This document shows positions 1 to 26,532 of a stretch of DNA of 32,000 nucleotides, piece by piece. The stretch's first letter is position 1; each line of letters opens with the position of its first letter. Under the pieces are notes generated by a model. That model ran no database searches. It had not been told where the DNA came from and worked only from the letters and a program-made list of their open reading frames with translations. Position numbers and translations under genes: made by a program. This DNA comes from Candidatus Thorarchaeota archaeon (GTDB lineage: Archaea; Asgardarchaeota; Heimdallarchaeia; Hodarchaeales; Hodarchaeaceae), in assembly GCA_048882505.1 (NCBI GenBank), contig JBHLRO010000017.1, positions 1 to 32,000 of the forward strand, read 5' to 3'.

Positions 1-465
1 CATTATGTTCGACCTCTATTTCCGATTTAATGCCACGATTTATCGCTTGATTTCTTCTCTTCATTCCATTCTTAAGGATTCATGATGGCTCACAAGAAAG
101 CTCATCTGGAATTTAATTACATCCTTGCTGGTTGGAATTGTAGTTTTAATGCCGTAATCTGACTCGCTTTATGCCCGTTGGAGCCGAGATTGCCTCAAAA
201 ACCCGGAGGAATATCGTCCTACCTAGCGGCTTTATTGTTTTATACATCGAATCTTAAATTTGTCTTTAAAAATCCGATTAAGACTTAAACCATACTCTTA
301 TCTTGTTAAGAGGTTAATAATGCTTTGTTTTTGACTCTTTGTCGTCTGTTGCTATTCCCCTGCCTGACTGCATGTAATTTAGGTCGTTATAGCGAAAATG
401 GGTTTATTCGATTCAAGCACCTCGTCTGAGAGGTGTTACACCAAGGATGGTTGTCAGTAGGGTGC

Positions 466-476
466 AAAGTTTATAT
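466..476 (+). promoter_or_regulatory. Archaeal-type BRE/TATA promoter candidate for the RHH-MerB-like pair
   Basis: AAAG-TTTATAT about 43 nt upstream of the likely GTG at 519. The same AAAGTTTATA string recurs at 12026. Confidence 0.55.
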
Positions 477-480
477 GTCT

Positions 481-506
481 ATTACAAATTACATATTACA
501 AATTAC
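481..506 (+). repeat. 12-bp direct repeat ATTACAAATTAC x2 (2-nt spacer), candidate operator
   Basis: 481-492 and 495-506 are identical. They lie between the TATA box and the start codon of an RHH gene. Confidence 0.6.
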
Positions 507-518
507 GAGGATTCTAAG

Positions 519-881
519 GTGTCTAGGAAAAAGAAATCTGAGAAGTCAGGCGATGATCCTGGAATGGAATGTGTAGTTTACGTTGGCGATGCCCAAACTG
601 GTGGTTTAAAGGGGAATGTCAAAGGAAAAATTTTAGAGGCAATAGAAACCAGTCTGGAGAAGCTGGAGGGGAGAAACAATGTGGTTTTAACTCGCCTCGA
701 CGATTCTACCATGCATCAACTTGACGCGTTGATCGAAATCGGGTTGTTCAAAAGCAAATCGGAAGCAGTTGCTTTTTTTTGTCATGAAGGTATTGCTGCG
801 AAAAGGGATTTGTTTGATAAAATAATGCCTACCGTCGAGAAAATCCGGGAACTAAAAGAGCAAGCGAAACAGAATTTGTAG
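519..881 (+). CDS. Ribbon-helix-helix (CopG/Arc/MetJ-like) DNA-binding protein with C-terminal coiled coil
   Basis: NNVVLTRLDDSTMHQLDALIEIGLFKSKSEAVAFFCHEG fits the strand-helix-helix pattern 'vrl...ld.lve.G.f.srseai'. ORF track starts at 447; the in-frame GTG at 519 lies after the TATA box and is preferred. Confidence 0.7.
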   Translation: MSRKKKSEKSGDDPGMECVVYVGDAQTGGLKGNVKGKILEAIETSLEKLEGRNNVVLTRLDDSTMHQLDALIEIGLFKSKSEAVAFFCHEGIAAKRDLFDKIMPTVEKIRELKEQAKQNL

Positions 882-892
882 AGGATTCATAA

Positions 893-1711
893 ATGAGTAG
901 TGTCGACGTAAATCTATCCCAAGCCGAACGTAGGATATTGAGGTTTCTCTTAAACACATTTAAATCGCAAGGAACGTTACCCTCGATAAAAGAAGTTCAA
1001 GAAACCTTAGATATTCCATATGATAAGGTAATTGCGGAAAAAATGATCAATCAATTTCTTAAACGGGGCATAATTGGTGTAGGTTTGAATAATGACCAAA
1101 AGAAGATCCTTGATTTTGTTTTGGAACAATACTCGAAGTCTGGCAAATATTTTACAGCAATCGAGTTATCACAAAACCTTTCTGTGTCATTAGAGACCCT
1201 AGAAAAGAATCTCGTGAAGCTAAATTCCCTTGGACTTCTTGTTGGAGGTAATTCTCATAATGATACAATTGTACCGTCTGTTATGAGAATGGGGTTTGAT
1301 AATATCGCAATATTGGACGACGGCAGACAAGAAAAGGCTGGATGTGCCATAGACGCCCTCGGAGTTCCGTTCATGTACGATCAGGATGCAACAATCATTT
1401 CGAAAGATCCTATAACTGAGGAGGAGATAAAAATTGAGATTCGCGAGGGCGAGATCAGATTTCAGCAACCCGAGAACTTGTTCGTATACTTTGGGAGTGA
1501 TTGCGCTACTATTCTTTTTTTTACATCAAAAACGAGCTTAGAAAGATGGGAAGAGAAAAATCCGAGTCAGAGCGGAATAACTTTAGATATGGATCAGGCT
1601 TTAACGTTAGCAAAACAGCTGTTCGAGAATCGGCTAAACCTAGACTTTACGCTTCAAGGATTAGCCTATGATCCAGTTAATAAAAAAATAAAATTAATGA
1701 ATATTTCCTAA
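893..1711 (+). CDS. MerB (alkylmercury lyase)-like protein with two N-terminal winged-helix units
   Basis: GCAIDALGVPF (CxxD), SKDPITEEEIKIEI, DCATILFFTS and DMDQALTLAKQLF match MerB core motifs, including both catalytic Cys and the Asp. The N-terminus has two similar HTH-like segments. Confidence 0.7.
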   Translation: MSSVDVNLSQAERRILRFLLNTFKSQGTLPSIKEVQETLDIPYDKVIAEKMINQFLKRGIIGVGLNNDQKKILDFVLEQYSKSGKYFTAIELSQNLSVSLETLEKNLVKLNSLGLLVGGNSHNDTIVPSVMRMGFDNIAILDDGRQEKAGCAIDALGVPFMYDQDATIISKDPITEEEIKIEIREGEIRFQQPENLFVYFGSDCATILFFTSKTSLERWEEKNPSQSGITLDMDQALTLAKQLFENRLNLDFTLQGLAYDPVNKKIKLMNIS

Positions 1712-2076
1712 CTGGCTCAAAAGGAAGCGATTGCCTCTAATATCTTCTTAAACGTCCACCGATGAAGCAGCTCCATTGATTCTCCACGACCCTAAATCCA
1801 AGTCAAGGAGATTCTGGGATCCGAATGTACAGGCTTGAAACCGTGGGGGTACCATCTACTCTTCTCCAACATGATGAGCCTCAGCTGCCAATCCCTGGGA
1901 TTTATTAGACCGCCAGGAATATTTAGATCATGATAGGGATGGAACGGAATAAGATCAGCGACATTTCTGGGAGGCCACTTATTCAGACTTTTTGAAAGCA
2001 CCTAAGGTCGTGATCTCTTTCAGGTACAGCCCCCCGAAAAAAAATCCAAGAATTAAATGTGCTAGGCCGCTTTTCA

Positions 2077-4755
2077 TCATTGCCTAGTACTTTGGATAAA
2101 GGGTTTTTCTGCTTCTCGATTTTTCTCCCACCTTTTTCTTTCGGAACGTAATTTGAAAAGGTCGACATCCTTATATATAAAACCTTCTTCGCCTGCAGGG
2201 AGTGTACGTTCGATTCGTTCTTTTTCTGGAGTGTAAATAAGAGAATTTCCAAATTCCGCAATATTTACGAAAAAGCAGTATGCGTAAATTGAACGACGAG
2301 CATCAAAGTGTGCGGCCTTAAATTCCGCCGTGACTGGGGTGAATGCAAGGTTGAAAAGTAGATCTATCGGCGGTTCTGCGTTTTTTAATTCGACACGCAA
2401 ATCCATGTCCAAAAAGTCTCGGCAAATCACGATAGCCATTCTTCCATATTCTGTTTCTCCAATGATGATCTTCCTTGCAGTGACTCCGGTTTCAATTCCT
2501 TCTTTGAACCGTTTCCCTTCGTAGGTTATGGTAGCCGGAATATGTTTACCTTGCTCCCAGAGGATACCATATGGACTGATAACATTACTAACATTTCGTC
2601 TGGTGCTTTTTTTGTGATAGGAGCCAGCTACAATGTACATTTGATATTTCTTGGAATAAAATGAAATTTCCTCGAACAAAGTGCCATGATTTAGGTCAAT
2701 AGAGAGCTCAGGAAATAGTAGGATGTTGACTCCATGCGAATGGGCTTTTTCGATTAATTCCTTTACCTTGGTTGAAATCTTCCCAACTTTATCTTGCTTA
2801 ATGGAAAATAAGCCTGGTTCAAACTCTTCATAGAACTCTTCAAGAACATCACCTGCAGTTGAGAGACCAATTTGAGCAACAGCAACACGACACGTATCCT
2901 TCTGGATTCCCCCATAAGCTCGCAGGAAATCGCGATATTCTAGCTTATAAACGGGGCCTTGGAGTTTTCTCGATATGGGGAAGAATTCATTTCCCAAATC
3001 TTGAATCAAACTAGCTTTCAGACCCTCAAGCAAATTAGAGCGTAGCGGTATTTCTTCTAGTCGTTGTTGGAGACTTTCAATTCCGCCCCCGTTGCCTATT
3101 CCTTTTCTTATTTCATTATTGACTGATTCTTGTTGCTGAATAATCTTTGGTAAATAATGGGAGAGTCCTTTAGTTTCTGCGGCATGCCTGGCCCTATTTA
3201 AACATGTGATTGCTTTATCCATATCTCTTTCAATTAGATCCACTTGTGCAGTGAGTAAACATGATTCAATTAATATCATGGGAACGTTATTTTCTTCTCC
3301 CAATTCAGCCAATTTTTGAAAAAGACCATGTATTTCATCTAATACTTCTGGTTCACCGTAGGATTTGAATTCAGAAATCAGCATATCACAGTAGTTTAGG
3401 GTCGCGAAAAGCGTCAAACAAATATCTACAGTTTTTTCAGTAACTAGTTCCCTTAGGATACTCTGGGCATTAATCTTCTCGGTAATTCTGGCACTTTGTT
3501 TCAAAACTAGCGCCTTTGCTAATCTTAATTGGTAATGGACAATGGCGCTGGGCTCCTTGGCATGAAACTTCTCCAACCTTTCTAGGTACTTTTGGGCTTG
3601 ATCATGTGCCTCCAATTCCAACGAGACGAATACAAGATAATAGAGTGTTTCGGGGTAACCAAACATGTTCAAAGGAATTTCGTCTGTCGGCTGATTATCA
3701 CCCCTATTCCATAATCGGTTAATAAAGCTGCTGTTAAAATGCTGGTACGCGAGATCTACTTCTCCTAAGCTCAAATAAGCCCTTCCTAGCTTCAGGTTGC
3801 TTTCGATAGAACAGTTTCTGTCATTTAAACTTCTAAAAATGAAAAAAGCGTCGTGATAGTTTTCAACTGCTCCGTGGGCATCCCCTCTAACAAGTAGAAG
3901 TTCTCCCGAATTAAGCATCCCCTTCGCATACAGGTGTCGATCTTCTACTTCTTTGGCCAATTCAAGACTTTGTTGAAGTTCGAGCTGACTCATGACGAAT
4001 TCCCCTTGACGTCTGAAAACCTTTGAGAGACTTAATCGTAATTCACCCTCCAGCCATTTATTTTGAATTTTACCGGCTACCTGAATACCCCTCTCCAACG
4101 CTGATTGGGCAGCCCTAAGCTTGCCTACGGAGTAACAACATTCCCCTATTCTATAAAGCGAAAATGCTATTCCTGGTTGAACATCATTTTTCTCAGAGAG
4201 AGCCAAACCTCTTTGTGCAAAATTCATGGATTCCTCAAGGAGTCCTTCCCAGAAGTATATCATACTCATGTTGTTCAATGCATGAGTGGCGCCACGATGG
4301 TCCCCAATCTCTGTAAAGATCTCATAACCTTCCTGTTCGAATTGTAAGGCGAGATCAGGTTCTCCAAATAGGACCTCAGTGAACATCCCTTTTTCAATTT
4401 TTAACTCTGCAATCCAAATTTTCTCCGTTTCCAAAATACCTTGATCCAAGGTATCAACCAAGTTTTCTGCCTTATTAATTTCTGTAAATGCCTTGTTCCA
4501 CTTAAGAAATACTCTTAATGAAAGACCCTTTACAATTCTGGCTTTACATTCAACAATCGGGTCATCTAAAGACGAAATTTCGTCAAGTATAAAGTCGGCC
4601 AAATCTAACGCTTTCTGATAGAGTGCCTTGTAATAGAGAATTAGGGCCTTCAGGGCTGTATCATGAAAGGAGGATTTATCATTTTGGTTTATCTGATTAA
4701 GGGCCTCATCAAAAAGTCCGTTTTTAAATAAGTCAAGGGTTTTTGGGGGCCCCAT
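2077..4755 (-). CDS. TPR-repeat protein fused to C-terminal nitrilase/carbon-nitrogen hydrolase domain (copy 1)
   Basis: About 580 aa of TPR-like helical repeats, then RVAVAQI, LLFPELS (Glu), QGKHIP (Lys), IVICRDF (Cys), NIAEFGNSLIYTP. Confidence 0.85.
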   Translation of the reverse strand: MGPPKTLDLFKNGLFDEALNQINQNDKSSFHDTALKALILYYKALYQKALDLADFILDEISSLDDPIVECKARIVKGLSLRVFLKWNKAFTEINKAENLVDTLDQGILETEKIWIAELKIEKGMFTEVLFGEPDLALQFEQEGYEIFTEIGDHRGATHALNNMSMIYFWEGLLEESMNFAQRGLALSEKNDVQPGIAFSLYRIGECCYSVGKLRAAQSALERGIQVAGKIQNKWLEGELRLSLSKVFRRQGEFVMSQLELQQSLELAKEVEDRHLYAKGMLNSGELLLVRGDAHGAVENYHDAFFIFRSLNDRNCSIESNLKLGRAYLSLGEVDLAYQHFNSSFINRLWNRGDNQPTDEIPLNMFGYPETLYYLVFVSLELEAHDQAQKYLERLEKFHAKEPSAIVHYQLRLAKALVLKQSARITEKINAQSILRELVTEKTVDICLTLFATLNYCDMLISEFKSYGEPEVLDEIHGLFQKLAELGEENNVPMILIESCLLTAQVDLIERDMDKAITCLNRARHAAETKGLSHYLPKIIQQQESVNNEIRKGIGNGGGIESLQQRLEEIPLRSNLLEGLKASLIQDLGNEFFPISRKLQGPVYKLEYRDFLRAYGGIQKDTCRVAVAQIGLSTAGDVLEEFYEEFEPGLFSIKQDKVGKISTKVKELIEKAHSHGVNILLFPELSIDLNHGTLFEEISFYSKKYQMYIVAGSYHKKSTRRNVSNVISPYGILWEQGKHIPATITYEGKRFKEGIETGVTARKIIIGETEYGRMAIVICRDFLDMDLRVELKNAEPPIDLLFNLAFTPVTAEFKAAHFDARRSIYAYCFFVNIAEFGNSLIYTPEKERIERTLPAGEEGFIYKDVDLFKLRSERKRWEKNREAEKPFIQSTRQ

Positions 4756-5317
4756 TTTTCTTCACGTTGATCTAGGATTTCTATGCTCTTTAGGTAAGTT
4801 CTTTGCCGAACTCATCTCTCTAACGTAACTATGCCCCCTCTTGACCGGAAACATGTTCTTTTTACCTCCCAAAATATGATTACTAGAATCGGACTGCACG
4901 TTCCGTACAAGGAACTCACCTCTAATATTATGATACTTGACGACACGGTTTTTTTTCAGATTTCAAATCGGGATTCCTACCCTCATTCCTCATAGTATTT
5001 TATTAATTTAACCTTTTTTTTATGTTTAAAATATGCAAATTGCCTCGAGGCTATCGCATAAATTTCGGAGCCAAAATTGCTCCCGCGATCCAAAAGGAAG
5101 CAGCGTCACTGTTTTTATTCCAAGAAGGAATAAAAGCTTGCTCTCTATCACGCCTCCATTGATTATAGCCGAAAGTGCTTGGAGCGCTCAAACATCCTAG
5201 AAGGCTGGACACCAAAGAATAATCAAGCTTTATTCAAAAAGCAAATCAGAATCATTTACCGCCCTTTTTCCACAATAAATGCCACCAGAAGGTATTTAAT
5301 AAAGGAATTTATTTCCG

Positions 5318-5896
5318 ATGATGCTCAATCGTATTCAAAACAAATTGTTGGGTGTTCAACCAAAATATTTGGCACTAAGTCTGGTTTTTGGAAGTTTATT
5401 TGTACTTAGTGTCATTTTGCTTGTTTTCATGCCAACAGAGGGAACCATGGCTTCAACTGGATTTACTATTTTTGATTTTCAGTTGGCTTGGACGAAAGCG
5501 AAAGTGGACATGATATTAGAAGCGTGGACGAACATTCTCCCAACAGTACTCTATCAAACATACTTCGATTACGTCTTTATTGTAGGGTATATTCTCCTGT
5601 TCACGAGTTTTTGGTTGCTCGTCTCACAAAGAATTCGTGGGAGAAGAATGGGGAGGATCACAGGGAGGATGATCTGGTTTGCGGGTCTCGCTGGCATTTT
5701 TGATGCAATCGAGAATGTGTTTTCTATGCAGGTACTCTCATCTCCATTGAATTATTCAGATTTCCTTCCTATGATAATAAGTTCCTTTGCTACTCTTAAG
5801 TTTCTTGCCTTGCTTGTTCAAATTGCGATTCTCGTGCCTTCTGTTATAACATTCATCAATCTTAACCTAATGAGCGGGAAAAATTCGCACGAATGA
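5318..5896 (+). CDS. Uncharacterised polytopic membrane protein (4-5 TM) with DxxEN motif
   Basis: Hydrophobic segments; motifs FDYVFIVGY and GIFDAIENVF; 192-aa clean ORF. Confidence 0.65.
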   Translation: MMLNRIQNKLLGVQPKYLALSLVFGSLFVLSVILLVFMPTEGTMASTGFTIFDFQLAWTKAKVDMILEAWTNILPTVLYQTYFDYVFIVGYILLFTSFWLLVSQRIRGRRMGRITGRMIWFAGLAGIFDAIENVFSMQVLSSPLNYSDFLPMIISSFATLKFLALLVQIAILVPSVITFINLNLMSGKNSHE

Positions 5897-5986
5897 GTGA
5901 ATCGGGAAAGGCCCTGATCTTCAACACAGACAGCCTTGTACATATATTTCGTAGAATTTCTGATTGGTCTAAAGGATCGTAGGATT

Positions 5987-8662
5987 TTACCGAGTGCTTT
6001 GAATGAAAGGACTTTCCGACTCTCGTTTTTTCTCCCACTTTTTCCTCTCGGAACGCAGTTGAAAGAGATCTACATCTTTATATATAATACCTTCTTGTCT
6101 TGCAGGAAGTACCCTTTCAGTCCGTTCCTTCTCTGGTGTGTAGATTAGAGAGTTTCCATATTCAGCAATATTTACGAAAAAGCAATACGCGTAGATCGAA
6201 CGACGAGCATCAAAATGCGCTGCTTTAAAATCTGCAGTGACTGGGGTGAAGGCGAGATTAAAAAGCAAATCTACAGGCGGTTCAGCGTTTTTCAATTCAA
6301 CTCGCAGATCCATATCAAGAAAATCGCGGCAGATCACAATAGCCATTCTACCAAACTCCGTCTCCCCAACAATGATCTCTTTGGGAAAGGTACCTACATC
6401 AATGCCTTCTATGATCCGCTGGCCTTCAAAGGTGATAATCGCTGGAATGTGCTTATCTTGTTCCCAAAGGATTCCATGGGGAGTTACCACACAACCTAAA
6501 TTTTTACTGATATCTTTTTTATGATACGTGCCCGGGATTATGTACATTTGATATTGCTTTGCGTACGACGATATTTCATCCAAAAACCTAAGGTGATTAA
6601 GATCAATTGAGAGCTCAGGGAACAGTAGTACATTAGCCCCATTCGAGTAAGCCTCTTCCGTTATTTTCTTCACTTTAGTTGAAATCTCTTCTAGTTTCTC
6701 GTTCCTAATTGAAAATAAACCTGGGCCCAATTCTTGGTAAAATTCCCCAAGAATATCATTTTTCGTTGACAAGCCAATTTGAGCAACAGCAACTCTACAC
6801 GTTTCTTTCTGGAGTCTCCCCAGTTCTTGCAGGAAGTTCCGATGTACTAGTTGGTATTTCTTTCCATGAATTCTTTTTGAAATGGGAAAAACTTCGGTTC
6901 CAATATCATGAATTAAACTAGTCCTTAGTGAGTCAATTAGATATGATTGCAGCTGAATCCTTTCAAGTCGTTCCCTTAATCTTTCTTTATGATCACCCTT
7001 ATCGAAGGCACCCTTCATTCCTTGATTGAGCGATTCCTGATGCTGAATAATCTTTGGCAGTAAATAAGGAAGTCCTTCCTTTTCTACTGTATTCCGAGCT
7101 TGGTTAAGCATGAGGCTGGCTTTTTCCGTTTTTCCTTCAATCAGGTTTATTTTGGAAGAAAGAATGCAGGCTTCAACTTCAACTATCGGAGCATTTGTAT
7201 TATGTCCTAGATCAATTAATTTCTGAAAAAGGGTTTGCAGTTCCTCTAAAACTTCTGATTCCCCGTACAATTCCAATTCAGCTACCAAAAATTCGGAATA
7301 GTTCAGGATGGCAAAAACCGTTAACCCGTGATCAACGATATTTTCATGAACCAAAGTTTTCAGTATTTCCTGCGCTTGAGCCTTTAGGATGATTCGGGGG
7401 CTTTGTTTCAAAACCATGGCCTTTGCCAATCTAGCCTGAAAATAGACAAGGCCGCTTGGTTCATGGATATAAAACTTCTCCAACCTGTTTAGGTACTGCT
7501 TGGCTTGCTCGAGTAATTCGAGCTCCAATGTGATCAATACAAGATGATAGAGAGTCTCAGGATAGCCATACATATGGAGGGGAATTTCGTCCGTAGGTTG
7601 ATTATCACTTCTATTCCACAATCGGTGTATAAAGCTGTTTTGAAATTGCTGATATGCTAGATTTAATTCCCCCAAAATCATGTATGCCTTCCCTAGCTTC
7701 AAATTGGTATCAATAGAACAATTAGAGTCTTTTAAACTTCTGAAAATACGAAATGCATGATGAAATTTTTCAATGGCTCCATGGGCATCCCCTCGGATCT
7801 GTAATAGATCTCCACTATTTAGAATGCTTTTTGCTGATAAATGTCGATCCCCAGTTTCCTCAGCTAACTTGATACTGGTTTGAAACTCTAGGTGACTTCC
7901 TTGAAATGCTCCTTGACGGCGATAGACCTTTCCAAGACTTAAACGTAGTTCTCCTTCGATCCACTTGTTTTTAATTATACTGGCAATCATTATCCCTCTC
8001 TCTAGCACCTTCTGGGCGCCCTTCAACTTGCCAACAGAATAGTAGTATTCCCCCATTCTATAAAGTGAGAATGCAATCTCAGATTTGATATCGTTTCCCT
8101 CGGAAATTGTTAAACCTTTTTCCGCGACTTCCATGGATTTTTCCAAAAAACCTTCAAAGAAATATATCATACTCATATAGTTCAGTGCCCGAGCGGCACC
8201 GCGGTAATCTTCTAATTTAGTGAAAATCTCATATGCAGATTGTTCAAGTTCTATTGCTAATTCTTTTTCTCCAAAAAGCACTTCAGTGAGTATTCCCTTT
8301 GAAAGTCTTAGCTCTGCAATCCACAGATCCTCAGTTTTGTGCATTGTCTGGTTTAAGGTATCTATCATGTTTTCTGCGGTGTTAATGTCAGAAAACGCTT
8401 CGCTTCGATTAAGAAAGATCGTTAGAGGAATTGCCCTCACGATGCGAGCTTTGAATTCAACACCTGGGTCCTTCCGAAATGAGCTATCCGCGAGTATTTG
8501 ATCTGCTAGATCTAATGCGTGCCTGAAGCGCGCTTTGTAAGCAAGAATCAAAGCTTTTAGAAGCTTGGACTCAATCGAAATCTCGGGAATTTTATTTATT
8601 TCATCCAACGCCTCATCCAGTCGTCCTTTTTTAAACAGTTCTTCCAATTTCGCATAGTTCAT
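5987..8662 (-). CDS. TPR-repeat protein fused to C-terminal nitrilase domain (copy 2, paralog of 2077-4755)
   Basis: Collinear with copy 1 over its full length; LLFPELS, QDKHIP and IVICRDF triad motifs are intact. Confidence 0.85.
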   Translation of the reverse strand: MNYAKLEELFKKGRLDEALDEINKIPEISIESKLLKALILAYKARFRHALDLADQILADSSFRKDPGVEFKARIVRAIPLTIFLNRSEAFSDINTAENMIDTLNQTMHKTEDLWIAELRLSKGILTEVLFGEKELAIELEQSAYEIFTKLEDYRGAARALNYMSMIYFFEGFLEKSMEVAEKGLTISEGNDIKSEIAFSLYRMGEYYYSVGKLKGAQKVLERGIMIASIIKNKWIEGELRLSLGKVYRRQGAFQGSHLEFQTSIKLAEETGDRHLSAKSILNSGDLLQIRGDAHGAIEKFHHAFRIFRSLKDSNCSIDTNLKLGKAYMILGELNLAYQQFQNSFIHRLWNRSDNQPTDEIPLHMYGYPETLYHLVLITLELELLEQAKQYLNRLEKFYIHEPSGLVYFQARLAKAMVLKQSPRIILKAQAQEILKTLVHENIVDHGLTVFAILNYSEFLVAELELYGESEVLEELQTLFQKLIDLGHNTNAPIVEVEACILSSKINLIEGKTEKASLMLNQARNTVEKEGLPYLLPKIIQHQESLNQGMKGAFDKGDHKERLRERLERIQLQSYLIDSLRTSLIHDIGTEVFPISKRIHGKKYQLVHRNFLQELGRLQKETCRVAVAQIGLSTKNDILGEFYQELGPGLFSIRNEKLEEISTKVKKITEEAYSNGANVLLFPELSIDLNHLRFLDEISSYAKQYQMYIIPGTYHKKDISKNLGCVVTPHGILWEQDKHIPAIITFEGQRIIEGIDVGTFPKEIIVGETEFGRMAIVICRDFLDMDLRVELKNAEPPVDLLFNLAFTPVTADFKAAHFDARRSIYAYCFFVNIAEYGNSLIYTPEKERTERVLPARQEGIIYKDVDLFQLRSERKKWEKKRESESPFIQSTR

Positions 8663-9404: not shown

Positions 9405-10505
9405 ATGGAAATGTCATCCCCAGAGGTTTTCCTTTCAGTTTTTGATATTCAGCAAAGCCCAATGCCAATCTTTTCAACCAATAAGGCAAGTAATAGCTTG
9501 GCCAATAAAATTGCGTTGAAAAGTCGTATAACTCTGGATGTAAGTGGTGGAGAAATATCCTCAGCTCTTGATGCGGTCCTTCCTCTTCCAGAAACGGATA
9601 AAATTGCTTACGTATATATTTTTTCCATTGAAGGAACAAATCCTGAAATCACGGGCAAGAAAAGAATAGCTTCGTTAAACTACGTCGTTAAGAGTTCAGA
9701 AGAAGAACAATTGTACGGAAAAATAAATCTATTGAAAGCGCAGGCGGAGGAGCTTTCCCGTGAGATTATTAAACAGCTGTTCAAATCTTCAACCGACGAT
9801 ATAGTTTTTACCAAGGATTTGGAATCGGAGATCGCCAGTTTCGGATCAATAATCTCATCATATTCTAGTTTACCGGAGTATGATATCTCGAGGGGTACGA
9901 AAGGGGATCCTTACCTTAAGGATGGCTCAATCAACTTTCTTATAGGATCATTTAGCAAGAATTTGGAGGCTGCCATTTTTTCAGCGCTTGCTGATGATAC
10001 CATCATTGTCATGGGACAGGAACTGCTCGTATCCCACGTCGTACGGGGTTTAAGACTTTTCACTTTGTTTCCCCCCAAAAATCACATAGAATATAGTACT
10101 ACATATGTGGATCCAAAAAATGCCAGGATTATTGGAATTTCAAGAGAGCTGGTCCATCTTTACGACGAAAATAGAGTCCTGGTTATTGATATCGATAAAC
10201 GCACGATTAGTCGTGAAAACAGGGATAAATTCCTCAAATCTTTGCTAAAAACGCTTAGAAAATCCAAGAGCGAAACTCAAATGCTTGATAACATCGAGCT
10301 AATCGTGGACAAAATTAGAGAGGCAGTAAACAGTTTGTCCAGTATCTTCAGCTTAAATGATGAAAGCAAGGTTAAGGAATACCTTCACCAGTATTCTGAC
10401 ACTGAAACGCATTTGATCTTGGAGCTGAGCAAGCGATATCTGCCAAAATTTATTCCGCAAATTGAAAAATTGCAGGCTCCAGATTTTGGAGATCTTTTTG
10501 CCTGA
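9405..10505 (+). CDS. DENN-like (longin + core + helical) protein, putative small-GTPase regulator
   Basis: N-terminal VFLSVFDIQQSPMPIF resembles the uDENN/longin first strands. LIGSFSKNLEAAIFSALADDTIIVMG...LVSHVVRGL and RIIGIS...VLVIDIDKRTI resemble core-DENN motifs. The C-terminus is helical. Start may be ATG 9411. Confidence 0.6.
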   Translation: MEMSSPEVFLSVFDIQQSPMPIFSTNKASNSLANKIALKSRITLDVSGGEISSALDAVLPLPETDKIAYVYIFSIEGTNPEITGKKRIASLNYVVKSSEEEQLYGKINLLKAQAEELSREIIKQLFKSSTDDIVFTKDLESEIASFGSIISSYSSLPEYDISRGTKGDPYLKDGSINFLIGSFSKNLEAAIFSALADDTIIVMGQELLVSHVVRGLRLFTLFPPKNHIEYSTTYVDPKNARIIGISRELVHLYDENRVLVIDIDKRTISRENRDKFLKSLLKTLRKSKSETQMLDNIELIVDKIREAVNSLSSIFSLNDESKVKEYLHQYSDTETHLILELSKRYLPKFIPQIEKLQAPDFGDLFA

Positions 10506-25324: not shown

Positions 25325-25599
25325 GTTTCCTTCAAGCATTTGATAGATTGTCCAACTCATATTCCAGTTACACGAATACAAGCTAAATCAATACGTTTCT
25401 TTACTCCTGATCCTGCTTCTTATTTTAGTTTTTGAGACGAATTACCATCATGTCTCTTCATCATCAAACCATCTTTTACGGAGAATATTGTTATAAGCCA
25501 CGAATATTACCGACATTTCTCTTCTATGATCGCTTATTAATGAATAAAAATGTAATTAACTTAGATAAGATTTCACGAAAAACAGATGGATTGATCATT

Positions 25600-26532
25600 A
25601 TGATCTCGGAGAATGAACAGCGCGCTTTAAGTGAAATCACCAGGTTGTTGTATGAGACTGGGAAGTTAAATGAAGGAGAAAATATCAAGACATTAGAGCA
25701 CAACCAACACATCTATGATGAAAAAGTATGTGTAAAAATTGTTAATGGAACAGTAGTGGGGCTCTCACTTAGATTTTGCGGTTTAAGATCCCTTCCTGAA
25801 AGTATAGGGTCTTTAGTAAATCTTAAACAACTCTTTATTCACGATAACAAGTTGAATACTTTACCAATTTCAATAGGAAGCTTACAGGATCTGGAAGTAC
25901 TAGACGCTGCCAATAATCAACTTGAGAACATACCAAACTCTATAGGACAATTAAAATCGCTAAAGTTCTTATATTTACATAATAATATGTTAAAACACTT
26001 ACACGAATCAATAAAGGGTTTACATAATCTTATCTACTTGAATATTAGTGAAAATCAATTTGAAGAGCTACCAGAATACTTTAGTAAACTCCAAAACCTA
26101 ATAGAATTCAGATTACATGATAATAAACTCGCCAAACTACAAGATAACATCGGAGAACTTGAGAACCTTCAAGAGATATACGTTATGAACAACAATCTAA
26201 GCTCCCTACCAGAGACATTTGGAGATTTAAAATCCTTAGTTAAAGCAGATTTCAAAAATAACCTAATAATGGCAGTTCCTGCTAGATTTGGCGATCTAAC
26301 TAATCTAGTAGAATGTAGTTTTAGAAATAATAGATTGGAGAACTTGGAATTTCCTATGAGATCAATGTTATCTCTGCAGGTATTGGATCTTCGCGCAAAT
26401 AGACTAAGATCTGTACCAAAAACATTAGAAGATACTAATAGTCTTAAAAAGCTCGATCTACGATGGAATCCAATTGATATGGAAACAATTTTGCAACTAG
26501 AGAGTAAATCATCAGTATTAATATATTATTAA
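25600..26532 (+). CDS. Leucine-rich repeat protein (about 11 repeats of 23 aa)
   Basis: Repeats of LxxLxLxxNxLxxLPxxIGxL. In-frame ATG at 25600 (MISENEQ) is preferred over the track start at 25432. Confidence 0.9.
   Translation: MISENEQRALSEITRLLYETGKLNEGENIKTLEHNQHIYDEKVCVKIVNGTVVGLSLRFCGLRSLPESIGSLVNLKQLFIHDNKLNTLPISIGSLQDLEVLDAANNQLENIPNSIGQLKSLKFLYLHNNMLKHLHESIKGLHNLIYLNISENQFEELPEYFSKLQNLIEFRLHDNKLAKLQDNIGELENLQEIYVMNNNLSSLPETFGDLKSLVKADFKNNLIMAVPARFGDLTNLVECSFRNNRLENLEFPMRSMLSLQVLDLRANRLRSVPKTLEDTNSLKKLDLRWNPIDMETILQLESKSSVLIYY

Follow-up and report, generated by a model that had tools for sequence, protein, structure and literature searches.

Paired TPR–nitrilase fusion proteins from a Hodarchaeales archaeon as candidate single-chain sensor–effectors carrying a defence-type nitrilase cassette

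A 32,000-nucleotide stretch of DNA from Candidatus Thorarchaeota archaeon (GenBank assembly GCA_048882505.1, contig JBHLRO010000017.1, positions 1 to 32,000; hereafter the window) carries two neighbouring genes, P0001 and P0002, each of which encodes a tetratricopeptide repeat (TPR) array fused to a C-terminal nitrilase-fold module. The module is closer in sequence to a defence-type nitrilase clade, comprising the DRT1, UG5, reverse transcriptase (RT)-associated, and CARF forms, than to the metabolic branches of the superfamily. Because the DRT1 and UG5 members of this clade are effectors and the two proteins resemble the layout of DRT1 without its RT, we see an even prospect that each gene encodes a TPR-gated nitrilase effector, that is, a single-chain protein in which sensor and effector would be combined. 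An earlier note, made from the sequence alone, had described two paralogues of about 890 residues with this domain order, and the description holds: the proteins of 892 and 891 residues share 62% identity in a gap-free alignment over 891 residues and contain both types of Pfam domain.

The nitrilase module was recognized by family models, catalytic residues, and predicted fold. Pfam CN_hydrolase (PF00795) matches at residues 653/662–871 with 32.9 and 31.8 bits, above the gathering score of 23.2. In a profile alignment, Glu683, Lys737, Glu752, and Cys778 align with the corresponding catalytic residues of mouse Nit2 (Glu, Lys, second Glu, and Cys). The Glu-Lys-Cys triad that the earlier note had reported as intact (Glu683, Lys737, and Cys778) does not vary among 12 full-length orthologues, and conservation of Glu752 is 90% or higher. 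An AlphaFold2 model of the C-terminal 298 residues, based on a 50-sequence alignment, reveals the nitrilase alpha-beta-beta-alpha sandwich with a predicted local distance difference test score (pLDDT) of 93.8. The best Foldseek match of this model is mouse Nit2 (2w1v; E = 3e-17, TM-score 0.68, 20% identity), followed by other enzymes of the superfamily; at E ≤ 0.001 the PDB gave 213 matches, of which the 50 listed are nitrilase-superfamily enzymes without exception. By gathering score, fold, and the Glu-Lys-Glu-Cys residues, the module is thus a member of the nitrilase superfamily, and its intact catalytic residues predict that it is catalytically competent. The module ends in a tail, FIQSTR, which is invariant across the module family; it comes after a terminal helix and is modelled as disordered in the monomer.

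Comparing the module with the branches of the superfamily, the defence-type models score best. The best PADLOC scores for P0001 and P0002 were 8.5e-15 for RTasNitrilase, 5e-14 for RT_UG5-nitrilase, and 8e-13 for CARF_nitrilase, against 5e-8 for Pfam CN_hydrolase. Taken protein by protein, RT_UG5-nitrilase scored 5e-11 and 5e-14 and CARF_nitrilase 8e-13 and 8e-11, with the PADLOC models overall between 1e-11 and 1e-15. When a 50-module profile was compared with PDB sequences, DRT1 (9yfd_A, residues 989–1221) was the top match at 1.2e-19, and Nit2 followed at 1.1e-13. An exhaustive HMMER search supplied the next-nearest proteins outside the Asgard family as outgroups; each of the ten nearest that were tested (27–34% identity) matches a DRT or CARF nitrilase model, 8 of the 10 at 1e-20 to 1e-40. 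No curated metabolic family model was reached, the sole NCBIfam nitrilase match being AguB with 17.5 bits against a cut-off of 410. The earlier note, which proposed either a TPR-targeted protein deamidase/deacylase or a ligand-activated effector, had named a grouping of the nitrilase with a known metabolic branch as part of what would refute it; since the PADLOC, DRT1, and outgroup matches are of the defence type and no curated metabolic family was reached, such a grouping was not what we found. No RT or CARF domain, the architectural mark of the clade, was present in P0001, P0002, or their scanned neighbours. One outgroup protein, P0190 (970 residues, metagenomic), has an N-terminal nitrilase followed by an nSTAND3 NTPase, DUF7179, and PUA; it also matches the PADLOC models PDC-S73 and mad8 and is a STAND-type protein with the same nitrilase clade as effector.

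This placement bears on two other explanations of the genes. The first is a TPR-targeted protein or peptide amidase, in which the TPR groove would recruit a protein for the nitrilase to deamidate or deacylate, in a housekeeping or signalling role and in the manner of the N-terminal amidase Nta1. However, the nearest relatives are defence-type effector nitrilases and include no protein amidase, and among 40 PDB sequence matches at E ≤ 0.01 there is no chain named N-terminal amidase; we consider this explanation rather unlikely. The second is a regulated small-molecule amidase acting on a metabolite or xenobiotic, with the MalT-like TPR region as an allosteric sensor or oligomerization scaffold. 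Here, the absence of any match to a curated metabolic nitrilase model and the Pfam scores weigh on the other side: the three ordinary stand-alone nitrilases of this genome score 62–142 bits with PF00795, whereas its four fused copies score 27–45 bits. We rate a small-molecule amidase as distinctly unlikely, a step below the protein amidase.

The N-terminal half of both proteins matches the Pfam models TPR_MalT and TPR_12. An AlphaFold2 model based on the 12 orthologues shows a confident helical solenoid, with pLDDT of 80–97 over about residues 130–540, in which six regular 40-residue TPR pairs occupy residues 110–350 and further helical pairs extend to residue 550. In this full-length model, the TPR region was good and the nitrilase half had pLDDT below 50, and the separate domain model was used for the latter instead. 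The linker at residues 551–602 is the least conserved part, with 42% identity between the paralogues. Moreover, the TPR array is interrupted at residues 345–370 by an invariant loop, RLWNRxDNQPTxEIP..YPET (window 3646–3723 in P0001; the same residues in P0002), which is specific to the Hodarchaeales orthogroup of about 890 residues and is missing from other TPR–nitrilase scaffolds; it might act as a hinge, bind a ligand, or touch the nitrilase. The earlier note's remark that the proteins lack a signal peptide, transmembrane segment, and Walker motif was confirmed: both N termini are hydrophilic, the highest 19-residue hydropathy values are 1.38 and 1.28, and neither a [AG]x4GK[ST] Walker A motif nor an NTPase Pfam domain occurs in P0001 or P0002. 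A match to EAD11 at the N terminus of 4 of the 12 orthologues (best E = 0.0014) lay beside stronger generic TPR and ANAPC3 matches and was treated as helical-repeat noise. Outside the orthogroup, the nearest TPR relatives are TPR-only proteins of about 580 residues (26–27% identity), and many of the database proteins related to P0001 through the TPR carry CHAT, NB-ARC, or TIR domains. TPR arrays typically bind peptides, which speaks for a protein amidase. TPR_MalT, in turn, models the TPR region of MalT, a maltotriose-binding sensor domain, and the match to it favours a small-molecule enzyme.

If the two proteins are TPR-gated effectors, DRT1 offers the closest guide to how they might work. 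DRT1 (UG1) is a class 3 UG/Abi defence reverse transcriptase (PDB 9yfd; Neville et al., Nat Struct Mol Biol 2026, PMC13275509), whose nitrilase is the effector, is required for abortive infection, and is active only in the tetramer (PMC13275509). Its conserved domain-swapped C-terminal residues close over the active site of a neighbouring subunit and hold the nitrilase off; the substrate is unknown (PMC13275509). Likewise, in the UG5-large/DRT11 RT–nitrilase of Sinorhizobium meliloti, the C876A mutation abolishes defence (PMC13436386). The only characterized members of the clade are effectors. By analogy with DRT1, the MalT-like TPR solenoid would be the input, binding a peptide, protein, or small ligand, and the C-terminal 290-residue cassette, a Glu-Lys-Glu-Cys amidase of the defence-type clade, would be the output. 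Whether the enzyme is active would depend on how its nitrilase core is oligomerized, the FIQSTR tail could complete or occlude the active site of a neighbour, and the TPR region would hold the enzyme off until the ligand appears, whereupon an amide-bearing cellular molecule would be hydrolysed. The gating, the oligomer control, the trigger, the substrate, and the biological role are all inferred in this scheme.

The distribution of the module suggests a portable part. In the exhaustive HMMER search, it was always C-terminal, with 50–69% identity, in host proteins of 497–1800 residues whose source names are Promethearchaeota, Lokiarchaeota, and Hodarchaeales. The N termini of these proteins fall into at least five classes without mutual similarity, including TPR arrays (16 of 41), alpha/beta hydrolase, beta-helix/NosD, protein kinase, Arf-type GTPase, and AAA_16; a more distant alpha/beta-hydrolase–nitrilase branch includes bacterial proteins, for instance from Sandaracinus. 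Members of different scaffold classes intermingle in the module tree. Its backbone has low resolution, but well-supported branches require at least two separate origins of the TPR class and at least three of a class of about 1276 residues. Judged from these sequences, the module is a conserved C-terminal cassette that is reused on unrelated scaffolds. Of 400 genomes of the phylum, 132 contain it, all from four families; a single genome can have as many as 14 candidate copies, and tandem triplets recur. The genome studied here has four copies, namely the window pair, an 864-residue TPR form, and a 1263-residue form with an unannotated N terminus. A search of viral contigs with the module found no relative. 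The architecture also appears to be uncharacterized, as the earlier note had supposed: searching for nitrilase with Asgard terms returned no relevant publication, and we found no paper describing a TPR–nitrilase or any Asgard nitrilase family.

The same distribution cuts both ways for the alternatives. Family members fused to the signalling domains Pkinase and Arf are in line with a protein amidase in signalling. However, because the cassette also sits on non-TPR scaffolds (alpha/beta hydrolase and beta-helix), delivery of a substrate by the TPR cannot be intrinsic to its chemistry. For a small-molecule enzyme, multicopy tandem families on shuffled scaffolds would be unusual.

The window pair itself belongs to an orthogroup of about eleven full-length proteins of about 890 residues, 57–64% identical and found only in Heimdall/Hodarchaeales assemblies. 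P0001 and P0002 are sister genes in the tree (support 100/98), which places their duplication within the genus. Synonymous sites between them are saturated, and nonsynonymous over synonymous differences (pN/pS) are 0.24/0.75 in the TPR region and 0.15/0.69 in the nitrilase, indicating an old, genus-level duplication with both halves under purifying selection. Recent gene conversion between the paralogues was ruled out, as third-position identity is 0.32–0.56 along the whole length, even in the last 90 residues, which are 94% identical. Compared with the outgroup P0004, the TPR segments of P0001 show 64% and 57% identity and those of P0002 77% and 71%, while the nitrilase modules of the pair show 77% and 75%. 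P0002 is the copy closer to the outside orthologues (71% to P0004), and on these identities P0001 is the faster-diverging copy, with the asymmetry confined to the TPR input and the nitrilase modules equally conserved. The stable inheritance of the orthogroup under purifying selection is a point in favour of a protein amidase.

Six independent genomic contexts were compared, namely the window and the loci L001, L002, L003, L012, and L013/L014, the last two being counted as one. Around the pair in the window lie a MerB-like gene, the lipid genes FakA/DegV/PlsY, hydrolases, and a folliculin/DENN-like protein; these lipid and hydrolase surroundings favour a small-molecule amidase. So does the placement of the orthologues P0007 and P0011 between a PIG-L deacetylase and a GNAT gene (PIG-L upstream and GNAT downstream in both L013 and L014), as well as the metallo-beta-lactamase-fold, DinB, and two GNAT genes downstream in L003. 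In L001, which comes from another Hodarchaeales genome, the orthologue stands beside other TPR proteins; 5 kb from it, a 917-residue protein (L001:17758–20511, +) has a related TPR scaffold (25% identity) and a C-terminal domain whose Atlas model matches fucose/arabinose-isomerase-like proteins with TM-scores of 0.86–0.92, again pointing to small-molecule chemistry. L003 contains a second TPR–nitrilase of 804 residues (L003:16447–18861, +), 36–40% identical to the window proteins and 3.8 kb downstream of the orthologue P0009, which makes another loose pair. L012 has housekeeping and transport neighbours only. In favour of a protein amidase in signalling, a folliculin/C9orf72/DENN-like protein is encoded divergently beside gene 2, and an Arf-family GTPase lies near one orthologue. 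However, no operon is conserved across the orthogroup, which tells against a small-molecule pathway, and the lack of any conserved partner gene across the examined orthologue contexts tells against a protein amidase. The folliculin-like neighbour and the other flanking open reading frames (ORFs) were ruled out as partners, being not conserved beside orthologues. Because no partner gene is conserved, the TPR–nitrilases would act as single-gene units.

The divergent neighbour of gene 2 is an ORF of 366 residues (window 9405–10505, +) without a Pfam match. Its language-model features resemble a Heimdallarchaeota cluster (0.95; Folliculin on 23% of members) and eukaryotic C9orf72, folliculin, SMCR8, and DENN clusters (0.82–0.89), making it a candidate longin-DENN-type eukaryotic-signature protein, with structural TM-scores of only 0.38–0.48. 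A PADLOC match of this protein to Csx1 (1.3e-4) is probably spurious given its folliculin/DENN-like features. Another protein of 366 residues, encoded at window 25432–26532 (+), contains leucine-rich repeats (LRR_14, LRR_8, and LRR_4). A scan for sigma-70 promoters and terminators gave results at shuffle level and is not applicable to an archaeon.

Several observations weigh against a TPR-gated effector. The association with defence islands that the earlier note had suggested checking was not supported for this orthogroup: toxin–antitoxin and Abi genes (ParE/RHH, PIN, and AbiEi/Eii) are abundant in only one of the six independent contexts (L002), and the other five consist of housekeeping or metabolic genes. 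Among the scanned window proteins and neighbours, no defence or mobile-element gene was found except the weak Csx1 match. The orthogroup is collinear and gap-free at 57–64% identity across Hodarchaeales and the duplicates are old, a pattern more in keeping with stable vertical descent than with the rapid turnover of immune genes. P0001 and P0002 lack an NTPase switch, and the clade has no member with a known substrate. Finally, since a related TPR scaffold carries a sugar-isomerase-like fold and several modules are fused to alpha/beta hydrolases, TPR–enzyme fusions in this lineage need not be immune. It is the stable vertical orthogroup, the ordinary neighbourhoods, and these other TPR–enzyme fusions that keep the protein-amidase and small-molecule explanations alive.

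In favour of an immune-like role, on the other hand, are the reuse of the cassette, the dynamics of its copy number, and the divergence biased toward the input. On balance, we hold a role in conflict or immunity to be plausible, at slightly less than even chances. Protein-directed signalling appears rather unlikely and small-molecule metabolism more unlikely still, and some other role would be improbable. Going beyond the pair, we tentatively suggest, as an idea that is more probably wrong than right, that Asgard archaea possess an NTPase-less NLR-like receptor repertoire, in which diversifying repeat scaffolds would each gate a shared nitrilase "death" cassette with the chemistry of DRT1/UG5; the window pair would then be two receptors with diverged specificities.

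The coordinates of the two genes, their domains, and the ORF between them are collected in Table 1.

Table 1 Features of the TPR–nitrilase locus in window coordinates
Feature	Position	Strand	Evidence
Gene 1 (P0001), TPR–nitrilase fusion, 892 residues	2077..4755	-	ORF, Pfam
Gene 1 residues 1–550, TPR solenoid, ~27 helices	3106..4755	-	Pfam TPR_MalT/TPR_12, AlphaFold2
Gene 1 residues 551–602, low-confidence linker	2950..3105	-	AlphaFold2, paralogue identity
Gene 1 residues 603–892, nitrilase-fold cassette	2080..2949	-	Pfam, PADLOC, AlphaFold2, Foldseek
Gene 1 catalytic codons	Glu683 2707–2709, Lys737 2545–2547, Glu752 2500–2502, Cys778 2422–2424	-	Codon check
P0003, intervening ORF with multiple transmembrane segments, 192 residues, no family match	5318..5896	+	ORF, family scans
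Gene 2 (P0002), TPR–nitrilase fusion, 891 residues	5987..8662	-	ORF, Pfam
Gene 2 residues 1–550, TPR solenoid	7013..8662	-	Pfam, alignment
Gene 2 residues 603–891, nitrilase-fold cassette	5990..6856	-	Pfam, PADLOC
Gene 2 catalytic codons	Glu683 6614–6616, Lys737 6452–6454, Glu752 6407–6409, Cys778 6329–6331	-	Codon check

The two genes had been called a tandem pair. They are indeed neighbouring paralogues, but because P0003, an opposite-strand ORF with three to four hydrophobic segments, separates them, the pair is near-tandem and not strictly tandem. The arrangement of P0001 to P0003 is real and not an assembly artefact: a 5362-nucleotide contig of a related strain (~93% identical), from runs of two studies, spans window 2040–7388, and a same-genus genome is collinear with window 1729–6258 at 91% DNA identity until its contig ends within the second gene. 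P0003 is syntenic in the same-genus genome (87% identity), whereas no homologue was found beside family members elsewhere. With neither a family match nor a homologue adjoining other family members, it was ruled out as a conserved partner, and its membership in the TPR–nitrilase system is doubtful.

Two local differences were seen at the locus. In the related strain (runs X3 and X4), 106 intergenic nucleotides between gene 1 and P0003 (window 5108–5215) are swapped for 105 unrelated letters, and there are small insertions at window 4950–4953. In the same-genus genome, window 248–1728, with an ORF of 144 residues and a winged helix-turn-helix MerB-like gene (893–1711), is missing at this place; L011 7014–7260 matches window 1–247 and L011 7291 onward matches window 1729 onward. 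The difference amounts to an indel of 1.5 kb immediately 3′ of gene 1.

The nitrilases of DRT1 and UG5/DRT11 were shown to be essential defence effectors only in 2026, and their substrate is still unknown. The window shows the same effector clade deployed with no reverse transcriptase: in the archaeal lineage nearest to eukaryotes, it serves as a transferable end module of TPR and other scaffolds. Were the TPR region to gate the enzyme, each protein would amount to a receptor of simple, two-part design for immunity or signalling, and would offer a tractable way, in soluble form, into the chemistry of the clade; if the receptor repertoire exists, the soluble archaeal module could help to identify the substrate of the defence nitrilases. 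Should the proteins instead be housekeeping amidases, they would caution against reading "defence-type" domains as defence.

Of the known systems, DRT1 is one of those closest to the window proteins. Among solved structures, its sequence matches the module profile best, and in its layout of RT, helical repeats, and nitrilase, the nitrilase is likewise C-terminal and follows an alpha-helical repeat domain; the comparison of this domain with the window TPR is one of layout. DRT1 also has a conserved lid at its extreme C terminus (residues 1218–1221), to which the invariant FIQSTR of the window proteins would correspond by analogy only. However, the window proteins have no reverse transcriptase and hence no DNA-adduct control, their host is archaeal, and they are not known to confer phage defence. 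UG5-large/DRT11 has a nitrilase of the same clade, according to the PADLOC RT_UG5-nitrilase matches, and needs its catalytic Cys, whereas its N terminus consists of RT and DUF4136 rather than TPR and its gene is found among other defence systems, unlike the window genes. CARF–nitrilase (PADLOC CARF_m7--CARF_nitrilase), a candidate type III CRISPR ancillary effector, similarly joins a ligand-sensing domain to the same nitrilase clade, but its CARF domain senses cyclic oligoadenylate, while the window proteins lack such a domain and a scan of the neighbours of the pair found no CRISPR-Cas genes. With STAND/Avs and TPR–CHAT proteins, the window proteins share a TPR array as variable input and an enzymatic effector, and one distant relative of the nitrilase is joined to an nSTAND3 NTPase; nevertheless, they lack the P-loop that defines STAND proteins, having neither an NTPase module nor a Walker A motif, and carry the effector at the C terminus. 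Nit2/omega-amidase (2w1v) and the metabolic branches have the alpha-beta-beta-alpha fold and the catalytic tetrad in common with the module, yet they differ in being stand-alone enzymes of about 280 residues with 13–20% identity and TM-scores of about 0.65–0.7 to it, and the module reaches no NCBIfam equivalog threshold.

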